A DNA stretch of 64,000 nucleotides from assembly GCA_964016885.1 (NCBI GenBank), contig OZ024742.1, positions 356,624,001 to 356,688,000 on the forward strand, read 5' to 3'. Numbering within the stretch: position 1 is the stretch's first letter; each line of letters begins with the position of its first letter. The position numbers and the translations under genes were made by a program. The stretch is from Eledone cirrhosa (lineage: Eukaryota). Shown piece after piece: positions 3,066 to 43,827 of this stretch. The notes under the pieces are model-generated. The model was given only the letters and a program-made list of their open reading frames with translations. It searched no databases and was not told the DNA's origin.

Positions 3066-3376
<311 letters not shown>

Positions 3377-3431
3377 TGAGATTCTACAGGACTAGAACTG
3401 TTTCATTCATTAGAAATCATCAGGAATCAGG

Positions 3432-3480
3432 GATTCCTGATGATTTCTAATGAATGAAACAGTTCTAGTCCTGTAGAATC
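3432..3480 (+). ncRNA. Minimal type I hammerhead ribozyme, family E (mirror copy 3380-3428 on -)
   Basis: GAUUC-CUGAUGA-u[uuc uaau gaa]u-GAAAC-AG uucuaguc CU-GUA-GAAUC; stem I covaries with the 39617-39667 copy. Confidence 0.88.
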
Positions 3481-3564
3481 TCATCTATATTAAAACTGTT
3501 ATATTCTGCTATGTATTGAGTACCTTACTTACTGTGGTTACCTCCGATTCAACCCGGAATAACG

Positions 3565-3601
<37 letters not shown>

Positions 3602-6680: not shown

Positions 6681-6735
6681 ACTGCCTGAAGAGGTCACAG
6701 CCAAAGATGGTTGTCACTGAAATATATATAGCAGT
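6681..6735 (+). ncRNA. Type I hammerhead ribozyme, family A, ending a probable PLE 3' region (about 5970-6780)
   Basis: ACUGC-CUGAAGA-ggucacagcc...gguugucacu-GAAA-UAUAU-AUA-GCAGU; 2-bp stem III with palindromic AUAU loop. Confidence 0.85.
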
Positions 6736-13229: not shown

Positions 13230-13308
<79 letters not shown>

Positions 13309-13526
13309 TAAAATAACAGATTAAAGTTTAAGCAAAGAATCGCTGCTTTCACCCTTAACGGGATCTTCTGAAACTAACAAAGTCAATCTGTAAACGCAGA
13401 ACTGGATATTTCAAAAAACGTTGCAACCGGAGGAAGACAGGAAGACGATACTTTGGTTCGTGGAAACGTTCGCTGGCAAAGAACGGGAAAAAACGAATAA
13501 TACGTCATTAATAGGAGCGGTGAAAA

Positions 13527-13581
13527 TAAAGTACCAGTAATGTACTGGGTAATTGCTGGCCTTGTGCCTAAAGTAGAAACA
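13527..13581 (+). mobile_element. 5'-truncated Meta-domain SINE insertion with a 20-bp TSD
   Basis: attaataggagcggtgaaaa at 13507-13526 and 13582-13601; empty site in the other arm near 17695-17715. Confidence 0.88.
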
Positions 13582-14792
13582 ATTAATAGGAGCGGTGAAA
13601 AACAATTACGTGCAAAGACAGAACCACGTTTATGGTATAAAAGAGGTCGTAGACTAATGTTCTCTTAGGTGGTGCATAGAGACGTTCTCTGGCAATGAAC
13701 GAAAAAACGAAGATAATAAGTCATATGTGGAGCGTGGAGAACAATAGCGCGCAAGGACAAAACCACGTAAATGGTATAGCAGAAGTCGTAGACTAAAATA
13801 CTAACTAGGAGACCAAATGAATCTCCGCTACAGAGTTAAGAACAAAGTAAATAAATACAATACAGAAGTAATAGAAACAAATAAATACATACACGCAAAC
13901 AGATACGTACATACACAAGCATCCGCAAAACCTTACCATAGGTATACGAAACCACGCACATATAAATATGTGTGTGTGTGTATGCTTGTGTACAAATAAA
14001 TAAATAATTATATAAACGTATATAAGTAAATAAATACGTATATAACAAGCGCACGCACATACCTACAAATAAATACACGAATGTTCGGAGACGTAAGTCA
14101 ACTAAAACAAGAAGTACACATATACACACACCCACCATACGTACGAACCTGCATACTCACGCAGACGCAAAACTCCCGTATACACATAGTCAAACCCTAA
14201 ATACCAGAATATGTAAAAATTATACGCCATAACAGTCAAATATACGTACGAGAAGGTATACATACCTTCACAAAACATACGGGTAATATATACATACCTA
14301 TGCAAATAAGTAAAGGAATAAATAAAACATATACTTAGCTCCCGCATCAAGATGTAAAATATCCACGTATAGATCGTGCTATCCGTTGGGGTATATCGTG
14401 GGGCTGTAATACAGGAAAGTTTTGTGCAATTTATGTTTACAAGCCGAAATTGCCTCGGATTTTTAGTTTAAGATGTGGTCTGTGGCGTAGAGTATTTCCA
14501 GGGCCTCAGCGGCGCAGAGGTCACATGGTCTTTTATTTCCGTAATACAATCTAGCCCTAGCTAGGATCTCCCAGTGTAACTTATATTGTGGTTGGTTGTC
14601 TTTTAGACTCCAGATATAAGCTGAAAGTGACGTCATATTCCTTCTTAGAGGGTAACGAAAAGAATGGGTATGCATGTACAGACGCTGCTTGAAACTATTG
14701 GCGGTTAACCCTATGTAGGCCCTACGGGACGTGGGTGTTACAACCTTACATTTGTAGACAATGTTACTAGAGAGGCATTTCCCGGACTTAGC

Positions 14793-16917
14793 AGAAACAA
14801 CATCTGAATATTTCTACAAAGAACATACCCGTACCAAGCAGGAAAACATACCTAAAACTCCTGATACAGAAAACAGACGCGTTCGTTAAAAGATTGCGTT
14901 GGCGTGCCTTTTATTTCGAAAATCCGCGAAAAGCAGACAACAAACAAGATAAATTTGGATTTAAAACCTATAATAACCCTCCGTGGAACCCAGCATTGCT
15001 ACCCTTCGAAAATGATGTCTTGGAACTCATTCGGAGTATCAAATTTCGGAATAGGAGCAATTCCTTCCAGCAAGACCTGAAGAATAGAATTCGTTCTATT
15101 AAGGATTCTAACGCCGTGCACGTCCATTCCGACAAAACTGGCAACCTATATCAAGTGGAGCGCAGTACTTACCATCAACTACTACATAATGCTGTAACTA
15201 AGGATTACCGTAAAACTAATCGGTGTGCCATCAATGAAATCAACGATGCTGGGTTTAAAATCACATCAGATCTCAACATCATGGACCGGACCGAACCTCT
15301 GGACCCTATCTCTCCCCACTTTACCCTGAAGGATCACAAATCCAATTTTCCGAACAACCCCTCTATTCGGCTTATTAACCCTACGAAGTCCGATTTAGGT
15401 AGACTTAGCAAAACGATTCTTGATAGAATTATACCTGAATTTAGAAGTTTGGCCCCTCTCGCACTGTGGGACAATTCCTTCGCGGTGATTGATTGGTTCT
15501 ACAGCATATGTAACAAGGAACATTGCCGTTTTATCCAATTCGACATCAACAATTACTACTCCTCCATCACTTTACCACTTCTCCTTAGAGCTATCAATTT
15601 CGCTAAAACACTCAGTGGTTAAGGATTTCGAAGTTGATGCCATCCTTAATGCCCGAAAGTCGGTGATTAATTTCGACGACTCTATTTGGATTAAAAAATC
15701 CAATAGCACCCCATTCGACGTGAGTATGGGCGCCAGTGACTCTGCGGAGGTTACTGATCTTATTGGCCTTTTCCTTCTTTTCTCTATCAAGGACGAATTC
15801 CCCAACGCGGACGGTGGTTTGTACCGTGACGATGGTCTTTTGACCATGACTAAGTGCGGATCTCGTGCTTGCGACAGGTTCAGAAAAGAACTCACAGCCT
15901 TCTTTAAAGGCTTCAACCTCTGTATACAGGTTGAGGCCAATCTCTCAGTCGTTAATTATCTCGACGTTACCCTCAATTTATTGAATGGGTTGTATTACCC
16001 GTATAGAAAGCCGAATGATACGCTTAATTACATAAGTAAATATTCCAACCATCCTGCCAGCATAACCAAGAACCTGGTAAAAAAACGTTTCGTTGAGGCT
16101 TTCCCGTCTTTCCAGCAACGAGCGCATTTTCAACGACCATTCCACTTATTACAATGAAGCTCTTGCTCGAAGTGGATTTGTCGATAAAGTAGCTTATACA
16201 GAGTACGAAAATAGACCTAGAAGAAATAGATCCCGTCGCATTTGTTGGTTTAACCCACCATATAATATGGAGGTGGCCACACCATTATCTAAGATCTTTC
16301 TTTCCCTTATTACGAAGCATTTTCCCCCTACACATAAATATAGTAAAATTTTTAATAGAAATACTATTAAAATTTCTTACTCTACGACTCCTAACCTTTC
16401 ACATAACATCACAGCTTCAAATTTAGCTAAACTACCTAGTCGTAGGAACACGTGCAACCCTGTAGTTAGTACAAACTGTAATTGTAGGAATCGGGCTGAT
16501 TGCCCCCTATCCGGGAAATGTCTCTCTAGTAACATTGTCTACAAATGTAAGGTTGTAACACCTACGTCCCGTAGGGCCTACATAGGGTTAACCGCCAATA
16601 GTTTCAAGCAGCGTCTGTACATGCATACCCATTCTTTTCGTTACCCTCTAAGAAGGAATATGACGTCACTTTCAGCTTATATCTGGAGTCTAAAAGACAA
16701 CCACACCCAATATAAGTTACAGTGGGAGATCCTAGTTAGGGCTAGATCGTATTACGGAAATAAAAGACCATGTGACCCCTGCGCCGCTGAGGCCCTGGAA
16801 ATACTCTACGCCACAGACCACATCTTAAACAAAAAATCCGAGGCAATTTCGGCTTGTAAACATAAATTGCACAAAACTTTCCTGTATTACAGCCCCACGA
16901 TATACCTCAACGGATAG
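14793..16917 (+). pseudogene. PLE polyprotein (RT + Cys-rich linker + GIY-YIG endonuclease) with two frameshifts (near 15616 and in an A-run near 16080)
   Basis: STKNIPVPS, SDKTGNLY, TLKDHK..RLINPTKS, FIQFDI..YYSSI, MGA, GLYRDDG, NYLDV, WFNPPY, CNC..CP..C, YIGLT..FKQR. Confidence 0.92.
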
Positions 16918-17835
16918 CACGATCTATACGTGGATATTTTACATCTTGATGCGGGAGCTAAGTATATGTTTTGTTTATTTCTTTACTTATTTGCATAGGT
17001 AAGTATATATTACCCGTATGTTTTGTGAAGGTATGTATACCTTCTCGTACGTATATTTGACTGTTATGGCGTATAATTTTTACATATTCTGGTATTTAGG
17101 GTTTGGCTATGTGTATACGGGAGTTTTGCGTCTGCGTGAGTATGCAGGTTCGTACGTATGGTGGGTGTGTGTATATGTGTACTTCTTGTTTTAGTTGACT
17201 TACGTCTCCGAACATTCGTGTATTTATTTGTAGGTATGTGCGTGCGCTTGTTATATACGTATTTATTTACTTATATACGTTTATATAATTATTTATTTAT
17301 TTGTACACAAGCATACACACACACACATATTTATATGTGCGTGGTTTCGTATACCTATGGTAAGGTTTTGCGGATGCTTGTGTATGTACGTATCTGTTTG
17401 CGTGTATGTATTTATTTGTTTCTATTACCTCAGTATTGTATATATGTACTTTGTTCTTAACTCTGTAGCGGAGATTCATTTGGTCTCCTAGTTAGTATTT
17501 TAGTCTACGACTTCTGCTATACCATTTACGTGGTTTTGTCTTTGCGTTCTATTGTTCTCCACGCTCCACATATAACTTATTATCTTCGTTTTTTCGTTCA
17601 TTGCCAGAGAACGTCTCTATGCACCACCTAAGAGAACATTAGTCTACGACCTCTTTTATACCATAAACGTGGTTTTGTCTTTGCGCGTAATTGTTTTTCA
17701 CCGCTCCTATTAATGACGTATTCGTTTTTTTCCCGTTCTTTGCCAGCGAACGTTTTCACGAACCAAAGTATCGTCTTCCTGTCTTCCTCCGGTTGCAACG
17801 TTTTTTGAAATATCCAGTTCTGCGTTTACAGATTG

Positions 17836-17886
17836 AGTTTCAGAAGATCCCGTTAAGGGTGAAAGCAGCGATTCTTTGCTTAAACT
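17836..17886 (+). ncRNA. Hammerhead-like motif with U4A core (CAGAAGA), family K
   Basis: AGUUU-CAGAAGA-u ccc guuaa ggg u-GAA-AGCA gcgauucuu UGCU-U-AAACU; copies at 3095-3145 (+) and 13325-13375 (-). Confidence 0.6.
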
Positions 17887-18439
17887 TTAATCTGTTATTT
17901 TAATAAATATTTGCTCTACGGTTTTTATATATTTGATATATATTTTCCTTATCGAGCCCTCTTTGGATTTTAGTCTTCAATTTTATTATTATTACTATAT
18001 ATATATATATATACATACATACCCTAAACGGACGGCAGTCCGTTTAGTAATATTGTTGTGGTCGTGTTTTCGTTGGCAATCGTCTGTTTACGACAGTACA
18101 GCGCGGCTTTGCTTTATTTAACTGAGATAAAACTTATATGAGCATGAACAGTAGATCATTACGCATCTTTTGGCTTAAAAATCTAGAAATTTGGTCCAGC
18201 GGGAAAAAGTTTATAATCAAAGTTTGCTGATAAATCTTGTGTTCAACCGAGTGAGTAGTAAGCGTGACGCTAGGGGAGGTAATCCAGAAATGACGTAGCT
18301 TTGTCATTAAGCCAGTTGCCTCAACTAGATTGCAATTATACTCAAAAGAACTTTAAAATGTCAATCACTTGTCAGTATTTCACTATGATCATTTAATTAT
18401 TAGATAGTTGTTGCTTGCATTGCCTTAAAAATTAGTAGA

Positions 18440-38396: not shown

Positions 38397-39482
38397 TTGG
38401 GTGCGGATGCATTCATGTATATGTGTGTGTCCGCATGTATCTGTGTGTTTCTAAATATATTGTTAATAACTCCCTCTGGTCGAGCAACCTTTGAAGTGTG
38501 GGGACTGCTGAAAAGCTTCCATTACTCATACTTCTCGCCCCCTTCACCACCTCTTCTACGGCTTCGATATAAATACCCCCTCCGCCTCCGTGGTATTTTC
38601 TTCGGGGTTATAAGAGGCTTAGCTCTGTTTCTCGACCGTTATATCGCGTGACTATCTCCCCCTCCGCCTTTTGGGATTCTTTCTCACGTCGTGTAGAGGC
38701 GTTCTTGAGACTAGTAAAATGAGGTATCCTCTTGATAAGTCGGCAGACCTCGCAAGGACTCTATATCTTTATGATGTATTGTTTTTGTTTATGCCACGAA
38801 ACTACGTAGTCGAGGAATCTAGGAGCAGTTTAGGTATGATACATTTTATTACTAATTATATCTAAATGTTTCTTCTCTCTTCATAATGTATTTTTAACTC
38901 TGATACTGGTTCAGTCTAGTTCAACCGGATTGGTCTGTCCCAGTCATTCATTGAGCAACATCGGTGAAGTTGGCACCCTTAACTCACGGTTGGGTGCGGA
39001 TGCATTCATGTATATGTGTGTGTCCGCATGTATCTGTGTGTTTCTAAATATATTGTTAATAACTCCCTCTGGTCGAGCAACCTTTGAAGTGTGGGGACTG
39101 CTGAAAAGCTTCCATTACTCATACTTCTGGTCCCCTTCACCACCTCTTCTACGACTTCGATATAAATACCCCCTCCGCCTCCGTGGTATTTTCTTCGGGG
39201 TTATAAGAGGCTTAGCTCTGTTTCTCGACCGTTATATCGCGTAACTATCTCCCCCTCCGCCTTTTGGGATTCTTTCTCACGTCGTGTAGACGCGTTCTTG
39301 AGACTAGTAAAATGAGGTATCCTCTTGATAAGTCGGCAGACCTCGCAAGGACTCTATATCTTTATGATGTATTGTTTTTGTTTATGCCACGAAACTACGC
39401 AGTCGAGGAATCTAGGAGCAGTTTAGGTATGATACATTTTATTACTAATTATATCTAAATGTTTCTTCTCTCTTCATAATGT
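38394..39482 (+). mobile_element. Retrozyme-like tandem element, family G (593-bp unit, about 1.8 copies) with U3-A8 HHRs at 38727-38816 and 39320-39409
   Basis: Direct repeat with exact 593-bp period; UCCUC-UUGAUAA..GAAAC uacgua GUC-GAGGA; TA-flanked. Confidence 0.9.
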
Positions 39483-39552
39483 ATATATATATATATAACC
39501 CATGCTAGCGTGGAAGATGGACGTTAAACGATGATGATGATGATGATGACAT

Positions 39553-39748
39553 ATATAGAAAAGCTTCTACAGGACTAGAACTGTTTCATTCATGAGAAAT
39601 CATCAGGAAGCGCATGAGCTTCCTGATGATTTCTCATGAATGAAACAGTTCTAGTCCTGTAGAAGCTTTTCTATAATATGTATACTCTACTTTGTATTGA
39701 GTACCTTACTTAGTGTAGATACCTCCGATTGAACTGGGGATAAACTTA
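39553..39748 (+). mobile_element. Fold-back element, family E, with HHR at 39617-39667 (mirror 39562-39611)
   Basis: AGCUUC-CUGAUGA..GAAAC..GUA-GAAGCU; homologous to 3372-3563; truncated copy near 48163-48210. Confidence 0.88.
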
Positions 39749-39769
39749 TATATATATATATAAATATAT

Positions 39770-42710
39770 ACGAAAAAATGAAACGAAATTCCATTTCTCA
39801 CTCTTAGTACGGCTGTTACTTAAATATAAGTATGTATACGTACATACATATATGTATACAGACGTTCAGTAGTATCTATATTTATATACATATATGCACA
39901 CATATATATATGTACGTATGGATTCACCGAACATTAATTATAATGCTCGGTGTGTTTGTAAACAAACACCCCGAATTAAGCCGTACAGTGTCTAGCAACC
40001 CTCGTTGCTCATTTGTTCAACACTGACAAAGGAACGCTGTACTAGTTTCAAGCTTATTAGCTATCGTCAGCAACGTATACCTTCCTGCCAGATGGTTGAA
40101 CGTCTGAAAGTATATACTTTCCTTATGCATATTAACGGGTGAGCAGCTTAATTTGCATATCGAGTGAGTTAATAGGCCGGGGTACCAAAAACGATAAACG
40201 AAAAAAATGAAACGAAATTTCATTTCTCACTCTTAGTACGGCTGTTACTTAAATATAAGTATGTATACGTACATACATATATGTATACAGCCGTACAGTA
40301 GTATGTATATATATATATACATACATGCACGCATATATATATATGTACGTATGGATACTTATATACAAATATATATATTTAATTTTAATAAATATTTGCT
40401 CTACGGTTCTTATATATCTGATATATATTTATCCTTATCGAGCCCTTTTTTGATTTTAGTCTTCAAATTTATTATTATTACTATATATATATATATATTC
40501 TCTGTGCTCCAGAAGCCAAAAATTCGGTTTCATATATTGTTTCCAGAATAATATCTAATAACTGTAGTAAAGCATATCATACTATTACAAAATTACCCTT
40601 TCCTTATATTATAAGATATATATAATGAAAGAGAGACATATATTTGACTTGACTTTTTTCTTAACTATGCAATTGCTATCTTATTTGGATCAATAGGAGC
40701 CCATCATCTATTTTAACCTGATATGCAATAGGCAGTTTTATCAAGCTTGGTTCATTTTACTTTCTATAACCTTAGAATAGATATCAATATTCTAGTTTTA
40801 ATTATTACTCTGTAATATGAGATTCATATTCTGCCTTCATGCAGTACACACACGCTCACTCACTCACTATATCTCCCCCTCTTTCTCTCTCATGCATACG
40901 TACATAAATACATACATACGTGAAATTACATATGCATTTATATTCATATATATAAATATATTAGTATGTATACGTACATAGATATATGTGTACAGACATA
41001 CAGTAGTATGTATATATATATATACATACATACACACACATAAATATATGTACGTATGGTTTTACCGAACATTCGGTTTGTTTGTAAACAAACAGCCCGA
41101 ATTACGCCGTACTGTGCTCGGCAACCATCGTCGCCCTTTTGTTCAACACTGACACAGGAACGATGTACTAGTTTCAAGCTTATTAGCTATCGTCAGCATC
41201 GTATACCTTTCTGCCAGATGATTCAACGTTTGAAAGTATATACTTTCCTTATGCATATTAACGGCTGAGCAGCCTAATTTGTATATCGAGTGAGTTAGTC
41301 GGCCGGGCAAACCAAAAACGATAAATGGAAAAGAATGAAACGAAATTTCATTTCTCACTCTTAGTACGGCTGATACCTAATATAAGTATGTATACGTACA
41401 TACATATATGTGTACAGACGCACTGTAGTATGTATATATATATACATACATGCACACACATATATATATACGTATGGGTTTACCGAACATTTATTATAAT
41501 GTTCGGTTTGTTTGTAAACAAACGTTCAACCATCTGACAGAAAGGTATATGATGCTGACGATAGCTAATAAGCTTGAAACTAGTACATCGTTCCTGTGTC
41601 AGTGTTGAACAAAAGGGCAACGATGGTATATTTGCACACCGCCACTTAATGATAATTACGAATTACCAATCATGGAGCAACTGATATGATAACCTGTTTT
41701 GTTTATTGCTCTGATTAAAATGCTCATGTACATATCATTTAGAGGGGAGTTCGTTTCCCTAGCTTGGCTGGTAGACATCTCTTCTATTTGTTGTTAGGTG
41801 TAGGTAAACAATTAAGCAAAAATACCATACCTCGAGATTATATGTACATGAGTTATCATATCACTTGCTCCATGATTGGTAATTCGTAATTATCATTAAA
41901 TGGCGGTGTTCAAATATCCCGTGACCGTATGGTGCAATATCACTGTTTCGCCACAGTGAAACGTGTCTGCTCGCATCAACACACAAAGTTGAAAAAAGAG
42001 TGTATTCAGCTACTGACGTCAGAACGTGACGTCAAAATTAAGGGCAGTTATTCGACCCCCTCCAAAGTCAAAGCTAGGTGGCGTGATCTTCTTTATATTT
42101 AGGTATCAGCCGTACTAAGAGTGAGAAATGAAATTTCGTTTCATTCTTTTCCATTTATCGTTTTTGGTTTGCCCGGCCCACTAACTCACTCGATATGCAA
42201 ATTAGGCTGCTCAGCCGTTAATATGCATAAGGAAAGTATATACTTTCAAATGTTCACTCATCTGACAGAAAGGTATACGATGCTGACGATAGTTAATAAG
42301 CTTGAAACTAGTACATCGTTCCTGTGTCAGTGTTGAACAAAAGGGCGACGATGGTTGCCGAGCACTGTACGGCGTAATTCGGGCTGTTTGTTTACAAACA
42401 AATCGAACATTATAATAAATGTTCGGTAAACCCATACGTACATATATATGTGTGTGCATGTATGTATATATATACATACTACAGTGCGTTTGTACACATA
42501 TATGTATGTACGTATACATACTTATATTTAGGTATCAGCCGTACTAAGAGTGAGAAATGAAATTTCGTTTCATTCTTTACCATTATCGTTTTCGGTGCGC
42601 CCGGCCGACTAACTCACTCGATATGCAAATTAGGCTGCTCACCCGTTAATATGCATAAGGAAAGTATATACTTTCAAACGTTCAATCATCTGACAGAAAG
42701 GTATACGATG
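39770..42710. mobile_element. Array of retrozyme-like family H (~428-bp unit) in both orientations, interrupted by other repeats
   Basis: HHRs at 40035-40075 (-), 41161-41201 (-), 41550-41590 (+) and 42278-42318 (+): CGAUG-CUGACGA-u agcu aaua agcu u-GAAAC UA GUA-CAUCG. Confidence 0.88.
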
Positions 42711-43034
42711 CGTGTGTGTGTGTGTATATGGGTGTTATGTGTGTGTGGGTGGGGGGTATGTTAAGATGGAGAGAATATATATATTTTGTGTGTGTGTATA
42801 TGTGTGTATGAAAGTGATTCTATTAGTAGAAATGGGGGAGGGAATTGTGTGGGGGGGGTATGTGTGTGTGTATGGGGGTTATATGTGAGTGGGAGCATGG
42901 TTAGCATGTTAAGATGAAGAGAATATATATTGTGTGTGCGTGTAGGAAAATGATTCCGTTAGTAGGAATATTTTTGAATGAACATATTTTCCTTACTTAT
43001 TCGTATTTATTCTGTTGTATTGTTAGCGCAAACG

Positions 43035-43827
43035 TATCTTAACAGACACAAAGTAAAACTAGGATACTGCTGCGCAAAGAACATGAAGGCCCACATCACC
43101 AGCAACCCTAAGAGAAACACTCCACCAGGGTGCTCTTGCCGTATGTCCGAAGCTTGTCCCCTTCAACAGCAATGTAACACACCCGCTGTAATTTATGAAG
43201 CTGTAGTCACTTCCAACCGACCAAACCAACCGCAGGAGGTCAAATCCTATGAGGGCATGGCGGAGGGCTGATTTAAGGAACGTTTCCTGAACCACCAGAC
43301 GACCTTTAGGTACCCGGACAGACGTTCATCCACGAAACTCGCGAGCCACATATGGTCCCTCAAGGACTCAAGTATAGACTACTCCATTCAATGGAAAGAA
43401 AATCACTAAGTCCAAGCCATACGAAAGGGGAAATCTGTCGTGTGGACTATGTATTGGTGAACGAATAAATATTCTAAAGAGATTATGCAATAATGATTGC
43501 CTAAACACGAGAAATGAATTCTTCACGCGTTGTCTACACGTCTCGAAACACCTCTTGCATAACTACAAAGCTACGGATTGAATCATTACAACAACATCAT
43601 AATGTTCTTATGAACTAAAAACTTTTCGGACTTTCGAAGTTATCTCACTTACACCTCACGCACGCATTTTAGTATTACCTGTATGAAGTGACCGGTTTCT
43701 GCTGCGCATGCGCATTCGTACAGTTGTCCTTCCTGTTCCGTATAACCATGTCCATTATGAGCTGAAGATCTGCTAAGGTGAAACAATTGTTCTCGGCATG
43801 GTTAACTAACTGTTGTGTAAACACTTC

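Follow-up and report, generated by a model that had tools for sequence, protein, structure and literature searches.

What is the hammerhead-bearing repeat at positions 39,770 to 42,710 of a 64,000-nt stretch of the Eledone cirrhosa genome (contig OZ024742.1; this whole stretch is the window hereafter), and how did it come to lie there? A preliminary description read it as a single tandem array of a unit of about 428 nt, the ribozymes of which would cleave only when two tandem copies pair. In total, the observations outlined below are consistent with a different reading, which we regard as probable: the repeat is a high-copy non-LTR retrozyme, likely copied into (TA)n by a Penelope reverse transcriptase-endonuclease, with a ribozyme predicted to cut mainly as a tandem pair.

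How large is the family, and what kind of element is it? In the 3.0-Gb assembly, a pattern combining the hammerhead core and its palindrome has 14,038 + 13,207 = 27,245 exact matches, against 0 for the control, and 27,876 matches when the four inner palindrome bases are left free. Judged by its sequence, the family is a non-LTR retrozyme: its 429-nt tandem unit is non-coding, carries a single type I hammerhead and is dispersed in many copies. The measured period (42099 to 42528) shows the earlier figure of ~428 nt to be nearly correct; sister subfamilies have units of ~420 to 500 nt, and open reading frames of 90 aa in the unit are low-complexity frames only. Numbered from window position 42099, the unit has its core start at 185, its palindrome at 209-214 and its predicted cut after 215. 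Arms were mapped in 130 non-overlapping loci, the window included, chosen by best hammerhead-region match, by core pattern or by a 3'-end pattern outside the ribozyme. Left out of the counts were 19 loci, for overlap with another locus or with the window, and 4 arms truncated by the border of their locus, which leaves 259 arms. No arm holds more than one core in 44 of 48 hammerhead-selected loci, at least two cores per arm occur in 8 of 81 end-selected loci, and arrays at a young locus reach 9 cores.

The four hammerhead cores claimed in the window are real, as are their two orientations. Two lie on the minus strand (copy A, with an extended helix I, 40024-40089, core 40070, predicted cut after 40040; copy B, 41150-41215, core 41196, predicted cut after 41166), and two lie on the plus strand (copy C, 41536-41601, core 41555, predicted cut after 41585; copy D, 42264-42329, core 42283, palindrome 42307-42312, predicted cut after 42313). 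All are of type I, with a CUGANGA...GAAA...UH core, three helices and an open helix I, and behind each stands ACUAGU-A, the hexamer of which is self-complementary, as had been said. A loose core pattern matches 20 times in the 64-kb window, versus 2.0 expected. Rfam returned no hammerhead family at gathering score, nor any among 99 matches with E up to 5; its sub-threshold microRNA matches were rejected, being the TA/GT-rich hairpin described below.

The finer points of the ribozyme as first described need revision. The motif ascribed to all four copies is exact in copy B, but copy C has UGAUG, a U.G wobble in helix I, and copy D has AGUU in stem II, also a U.G wobble. The stem I called compensated in one copy is indeed CGUUG/CAGCG at 40070, but it belongs to a whole subfamily and the pair is a U.G wobble; across 95 copies, this pair is A-U in 61, U.G in 18 and G.U in 12. 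Helix I is longer than 5 bp, with 6 bp, an internal loop and a further 3 + 4 bp (7 pairs), and helix II has 4 bp upon a U.U mismatch, found at its base in 92 of 102 copies in place of a G10.1-C11.1 pair. An intramolecular stem III was thought to require a 2-nt loop; the alternative is one A-U pair capped by the palindromic tetraloop CUAG, which is the amphibian-type fold (PMC7229834). With a helix III of 1-2 bp and a palindromic loop, the ribozyme has the helix III anatomy of dimer-type hammerheads.

Is the window one array? Based on arm anatomy, it holds two insertions, one of them split by an LTR fragment, and same-strand cores are 1126 nt (A to B) and 728 nt (C to D) apart, never one unit. 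Arm A (39766-40354, minus strand, 1.35 units) is a separate insertion of the CGUUG/CAGCG subfamily; its 3' end lies before (TA)n at site 2, the "tail" end of two family end sites defined below, its 5' truncation is at unit position 334, and it diverges from arms B and D by ~10%, with 19-22 diagnostic differences. Arm B (40953-41523, minus strand, 1.33 units) has its 3' end at site 1 before (TA)n and its 5' end at unit position 288, where it stands back-to-back, with a 4-5-nt overlap, with arm C (41519-41627, plus strand, unit positions 149-257). Arm D (42093-42712, plus strand, 1.45 units) continues the plus arm: C and D are best read as one arm split by the rearranged 3' part of a Gypsy-type LTR (41625-42092, plus strand), which replaces unit positions 258-423. 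Arms B and C+D, inverted repeats that are 94-95% identical, are a single back-to-back insertion. The LTR insert consists of 356 bp plus an inverted internal piece, lacks the last 3 bases of the LTR and occupies the place of 166 nt of retrozyme arm. It may have arisen by a template switch at insertion or by later rearrangement. A fold-back at 41625-41920, considered as a MITE with 69-bp terminal repeats, was rejected as such and is part of the rearranged LTR fragment.

The array had also been said to end at 42710, right at the start of a core. The repeat does stop at 42711-42712, on the first base of a fifth core (unit position 185), but this is not a family end: the end of arm D is non-canonical, with (GT)n-rich DNA beyond it, and at other loci 0 of 91 arm ends in one set and 2 of 164 in another come within 5 nt of this position; these two look like internal breaks. 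An array end at the core or cut site as a signature of processing is rejected by the arm-end statistics. The window contains old, damaged insertion products, and it is an unlikely source locus because no arm has two cores one unit apart. Conserved within the unit is ATGCAAAT (42195-42202 and 42623 on the plus strand, 40151 on the minus strand), which we take to be octamer-like; snRNA-type promoters use the octamer that it resembles, and it is a possible internal promoter element. For newt satellite 2, an snRNA-type promoter is on record (as cited in PMC2220036).

Where, then, do the arms of this family end? Of the 259 arm ends, 101 are at site 1, which is the boundary of the unit (immediately before 42099 or 42528 in the window), 99 are at site 2, ~60 nt further (42158), and 59 are elsewhere. 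The two site windows make up 32 of 429 unit positions, yet they hold 200 of the 259 ends, and TA repeats follow 172 of these 200 arms; loci selected by hammerhead only have 71 of 91 arm ends at the two sites. Between the sites lies a 60-nt "tail" (42099-42158, plus strand), and directly before site 1, at the 3' end of the unit, is a long TA/GT-rich hairpin (42430-42527, plus strand). Paired arms are oriented back-to-back in 77 cases versus tail-to-tail in 2, and back-to-back pairs with both ends canonical have mixed sites in 37 cases versus the same site in 6 (binomial p 1.6e-6). The 5' ends are spread across the whole unit, without a promoter-like boundary. The predicted cut site is passed by 70 of the 71 arms that reach it, with 1 stopping within 5 nt and ~2 stops expected from the mean truncation rate; thus, a cut linear monomer was not the template.

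Does any known element insert in this manner? Penelope-like elements are described as having partial tandems, an inverted 5'-truncated neighbor, a tail at one end and microsatellite targets (PMC8557442), and in an anole element the tail corresponds to what lies between two internal start sites of reverse transcription, with cutting and extension of both DNA strands (PMC11167929). The retrozyme has the features of a non-autonomous element of this kind: two fixed 3' ends internal to the unit, a tail at one arm only, 5' truncation, an inverted adjacent copy, partial tandems and AT-rich targets, in all of which it resembles the insertions of PMC8557442 and PMC11167929. A Penelope-like insertion footprint on this non-LTR retrozyme is well supported. 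By analogy with the anole element (PMC11167929), we infer that sites 1 and 2 would be reverse transcription start sites and that the enzyme inserting the retrozyme would be of Penelope-like type. There are also differences: the tail is 60 nt here versus 30-40 nt in Penelope-like elements, the element is non-coding, and the ribozyme cut precedes the end sites by 214 and 274 nt, a greater distance than in the anole element (PMC11167929).

Which Penelope element might be the partner? A search of the sequence flanking the sampled loci, and of 25 loci from one candidate family, yielded no autonomous Penelope-like element that shares the unit and no pLTR homology of the unit. Penelope ORF fragments adjoin many copies, and those inspected are separated from them by (TA)n, as expected because both share a target. 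At one locus (L063, G000:C1:18487967-18490993), a retrozyme arm abuts a 5'-truncated Penelope-type endonuclease fragment back-to-back with no TA between them, a junction that occurs twice, in inverted form; this endonuclease family, which bears a hammerhead of its own and does not resemble the unit, was rejected as the partner. In the window, Pfam recognizes 1 of 8 Penelope-type fragments as GIY-YIG, below its cut-off, and these fragments are so named from their motifs and their mutual likeness. A Penelope-type endonuclease fragment at 42978-43600 is followed at 43762 by a different hammerhead with a longer palindrome, ACAAUUGU (region to 43830), and was not linked to the unit. The window also holds a two-armed Penelope-type element at 13300-18000 with reverse transcriptase and GIY-YIG-like frames at 14792-16917; its plus arm extends ~95 nt beyond the end of its minus arm, and its tail stands alone at 40382-40498 and near many sampled loci.

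How might the ribozyme act? For the isolated 65-nt ribozyme, the computed energies are -7.0 kcal/mol for a monomer with a 1-bp helix III, -13.8 kcal/mol for an inactive fold in which the core CUG is paired with UAG, and -30.8 kcal/mol for a double hammerhead. For a natural tandem from a young array, they are -183.7 kcal/mol for two active monomers, -193.5 kcal/mol for the double hammerhead and -197.3 kcal/mol for the free, inactive structure. The double hammerhead, which requires a swap of the long helix I, thus falls between the two other structures, 3.8 kcal/mol less stable than the inactive ground state but ~10 kcal/mol more stable than the pair of active monomers, so that pairing is the better route to the active fold. 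Based on these modeled folds, cleavage is likely dimer-favored.

We therefore posit the following sequence of events for a retrozyme inserted by a Penelope enzyme. A locus with two or more same-strand units would be transcribed; two copies would swap helix I and pair their ACUAGU palindromes, and the resulting double hammerhead would free unit-length RNA. A monomer or circle would be spared because a lone copy prefers the inactive CUG-UAG fold, and a host ligase would close the circle. The Penelope protein would then cut both strands of a (TA)n tract, and reverse transcription would begin at site 1 on one strand and, on the opposite strand, at site 2. It would continue round the circle, or along a multimer left uncut, and joining of the two truncated cDNA ends would complete the insertion. 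Counting against this scheme, the anole Penelope protein is reported to insert without need of ribozyme activity (PMC11167929).

Is a circle needed at all? The family could instead be a non-autonomous Penelope-like element whose templates are linear multimers, read through and left uncut, with the hammerhead as a retained pLTR feature, weak or protein-assisted, and no circle. An uncut template would account just as well for arms that pass the cut site, ABAB arrays would represent multi-unit templates or local duplication, and in the anole element the main substrate was uncut RNA and the ribozyme needed protein (PMC11167929). However, 5' ends without a promoter-like boundary are simpler to obtain from a circle, and so are arms of up to 7 near-identical units, alike between arms. 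In a young two-armed insertion of 7 + 2 units, there are 0-3 differences per 300 nt across both arms (unit comparisons within an arm are not mutually independent), and the nearest other sampled locus is 1.5-2.5% away among the comparisons listed; such near-identical units in both arms are simply explained by a circle. Folded as a circle, the unit is 67% paired at -135.5 kcal/mol (z -8.3 versus 60 shuffles, partly from the TA-rich hairpin), and retrozymes of coral, mussel and axolotl are known to form circles (PMC7229834). A circle-free origin from uncut multimers seems unlikely to us, though it is the best of the alternatives.

Do all tandems derive from a monomer circle? Two ABAB arrays and the long array at locus L218, which looks locally amplified, indicate that they do not. 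At L217 (G000:C1:19313500-19318500), alternate units of an ABAB array are identical, and neighbors are 15/300 nt apart. L219 (G000:C1:319891500-319898000) is a canonical two-armed insertion with an ABABA minus arm in which ACAUGU alternates with ACUAGU, two palindromes that are mutually mismatched; in core context, ACAUGU has 4 matches genome-wide, all at L219. We speculate, and only tentatively, that one RNA circle is reverse transcribed from two start sites, one per DNA strand, by a Penelope protein pair opening (TA)n, and that palindrome-selective pairing gave the two-unit circle behind the ABABA arm. Like copies would pair across the unlike one in an alternating ACUAGU/ACAUGU transcript, and a rolling copy of the two-unit circle would produce the two-armed insertion. 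The second arm has ACAUGU without the stem II change common to the three A units of the first arm, so that a later local duplication is as plausible as a dimer circle. L219 is a natural test of palindrome-selective pairing.

Does cleavage strictly require two tandem copies, as the preliminary description proposed? Anatomy and folding favor the dimer, and for type I hammerheads with a palindromic helix III, a double hammerhead that cleaves multimers and spares monomeric circles is already a published model (PMC4209133, citing Forster 1988), so that the notion of processing multimers only has precedent. A strictly obligate dimer devoid of monomer activity, with the window array as its functional substrate, would accord with the three energies of the isolated ribozyme and with the Schistosoma minimal hammerheads, which have no monomer activity (PMC4209133). 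Against it, the nearest tested architecture, axolotl HHR_Amex1 (1 bp plus a palindromic tetraloop), cleaves 6% as a monomer in an hour, the HHR_Amex2 monomer cleaves 22% in an hour, and dimers of these similarly designed ribozymes cut much more than monomers (PMC7229834). Since monomers of the same architecture still cut 6-22% per hour, "obligate" is too strong and is not supported. The window also lacks two cores one unit apart, and its inverted arms B and C/D would form dsRNA in a spanning transcript. We consider the strictly obligate version very improbable. Against the pairing step of our own reading, 8 of 9 Xenopus dimer retrozymes were without cleavage in vitro (Li 2026, 10.64898/2026.07.22.740005).

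Does variation among copies bear the mark of a working ribozyme? Core bases are off the majority in 27 of 1151 cases (2.3%), versus 6.1% outside the ribozyme, and all 7 of 7 shared variants in unit positions 166-230 are structure-neutral, falling at N7, in loop 2, in a bulge or in pairs that stay paired. Helix I pairs are kept in 83-91 of 94-95 copies per pair, and shared variants keep the pairing; the L013 tandem opens with a core that carries a deletion in stem II. Shared variants also differ between strands: A>G affects 13 of 100 columns and T>C affects 3 of 97 (p 0.017), whereas private changes are symmetric (124/15,804 for A>G versus 114/15,221 for T>C). This asymmetry points to an RNA stage, by either A-to-I editing or tolerance of G.U pairs.

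What of the palindrome itself? Of 107 copies in loci chosen without regard to the palindrome, 90 keep ACUAGU intact, and no subfamily with another palindrome was found among the 27,876 genome matches, so that selection for self-complementarity is not evident in this family. Double palindrome changes number 30 among these matches, 10 of them palindromic: 5 of 16 outer double changes and 5 of 14 inner ones, a single locus accounting for 4 of the last 5. Variable columns number 42 of 334, and against that background the lack of variation in the four palindrome bases outside the core is not significant. Could the family be a satellite that grew by duplication of DNA, its hammerhead dead or a chance look-alike? 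Such an origin would suit the silence of Rfam (at gathering score or E up to 5) and the local duplication in some arrays. DNA duplication would not be expected, however, to give two fixed 3' ends and scattered 5' ends, one end site for each arm, ribozyme variants that are neutral to the structure, or shared changes with a strand bias, and this explanation, largely refuted by the end statistics, is the least credible of all.

Other hammerhead repeats were noticed as well. A different back-to-back repeat, common in other loci, occurs in the window at 39549-39770 (cores 39606- and 39623+) and 3361-3588 (cores 3423- and 3437+); it is probably monomer-competent because it has a 4-bp intramolecular stem III. 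Hammerhead-like cores of other families are found at 6686, 26185, 44364, 49708, 52883 and 60985, some with AUAUAU palindromes, and Rfam detected none of these six. At L220, a different, two-armed 310-nt tandem hammerhead family with the palindrome ACGCGU (5446 and 5756 on the plus strand, 698 on the minus strand) adjoins an array of the 429-nt family. Left of arm A, a direct repeat of ~594 nt (38500 and 39094, within 38490-39480) was seen by eye.

How does this family compare with known systems? It is closest to the axolotl retrozymes Rtz_331/HHR_Amex1 and Rtz_353/HHR_Amex2 (PMC7229834), sharing with them a non-coding, low-G+C tandem unit of a few hundred nucleotides, a single type I hammerhead in each unit, copies in the tens of thousands and a highly paired predicted circle. 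Like HHR_Amex1, its ribozyme has a one-pair helix III with a palindromic tetraloop, and like the active HHR_Amex2, it has a U.U mismatch at the base of helix II (PMC7229834); unlike either, it combines both weakening features in one ribozyme. Its units of ~420-500 nt are at the long end for metazoan non-LTR retrozymes. RNA and cleavage are known for the axolotl retrozymes, whereas the Eledone cirrhosa family is known here from its DNA. The main text of PMC7229834, which names Penelope elements as candidate retrozyme partners, contains neither "inverted" nor "truncat"; the back-to-back arms, two fixed ends and TA targets are described here. The dimer hammerheads of Penelope elements (PMC4209133) likewise have a short palindromic helix III and are proposed to act as a double hammerhead between tandem copies, but the present ribozyme has a "canonical" 6-bp helix I and 4-bp helix II, unlike their minimal form, and it lacks their G10.1-C11.1 pair and attached ORF.

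What, finally, does the locus add? Li, Clavereau and Pollet (2026, 10.64898/2026.07.22.740005) reached the same conclusion on the mobilizing partner from co-occurrence and pLTR homology, mainly in vertebrates, whereas our basis is insertion structure. Our literature search found no description of this repeat family or of two-site ends in retrozymes, and the papers that it returned on octopus and hammerhead ribozymes, judging by their titles and the opening of their abstracts, include none on this family. The dimer hammerhead itself is already known for this class; the insertion footprint is the added part. In the accounts available to us, published retrozyme work proposes Penelope-like mobilization from circles without mapping where copying starts. 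With exact putative start sites at two positions, one site for each arm, and arms that run on past the cut site, that copying step becomes testable.
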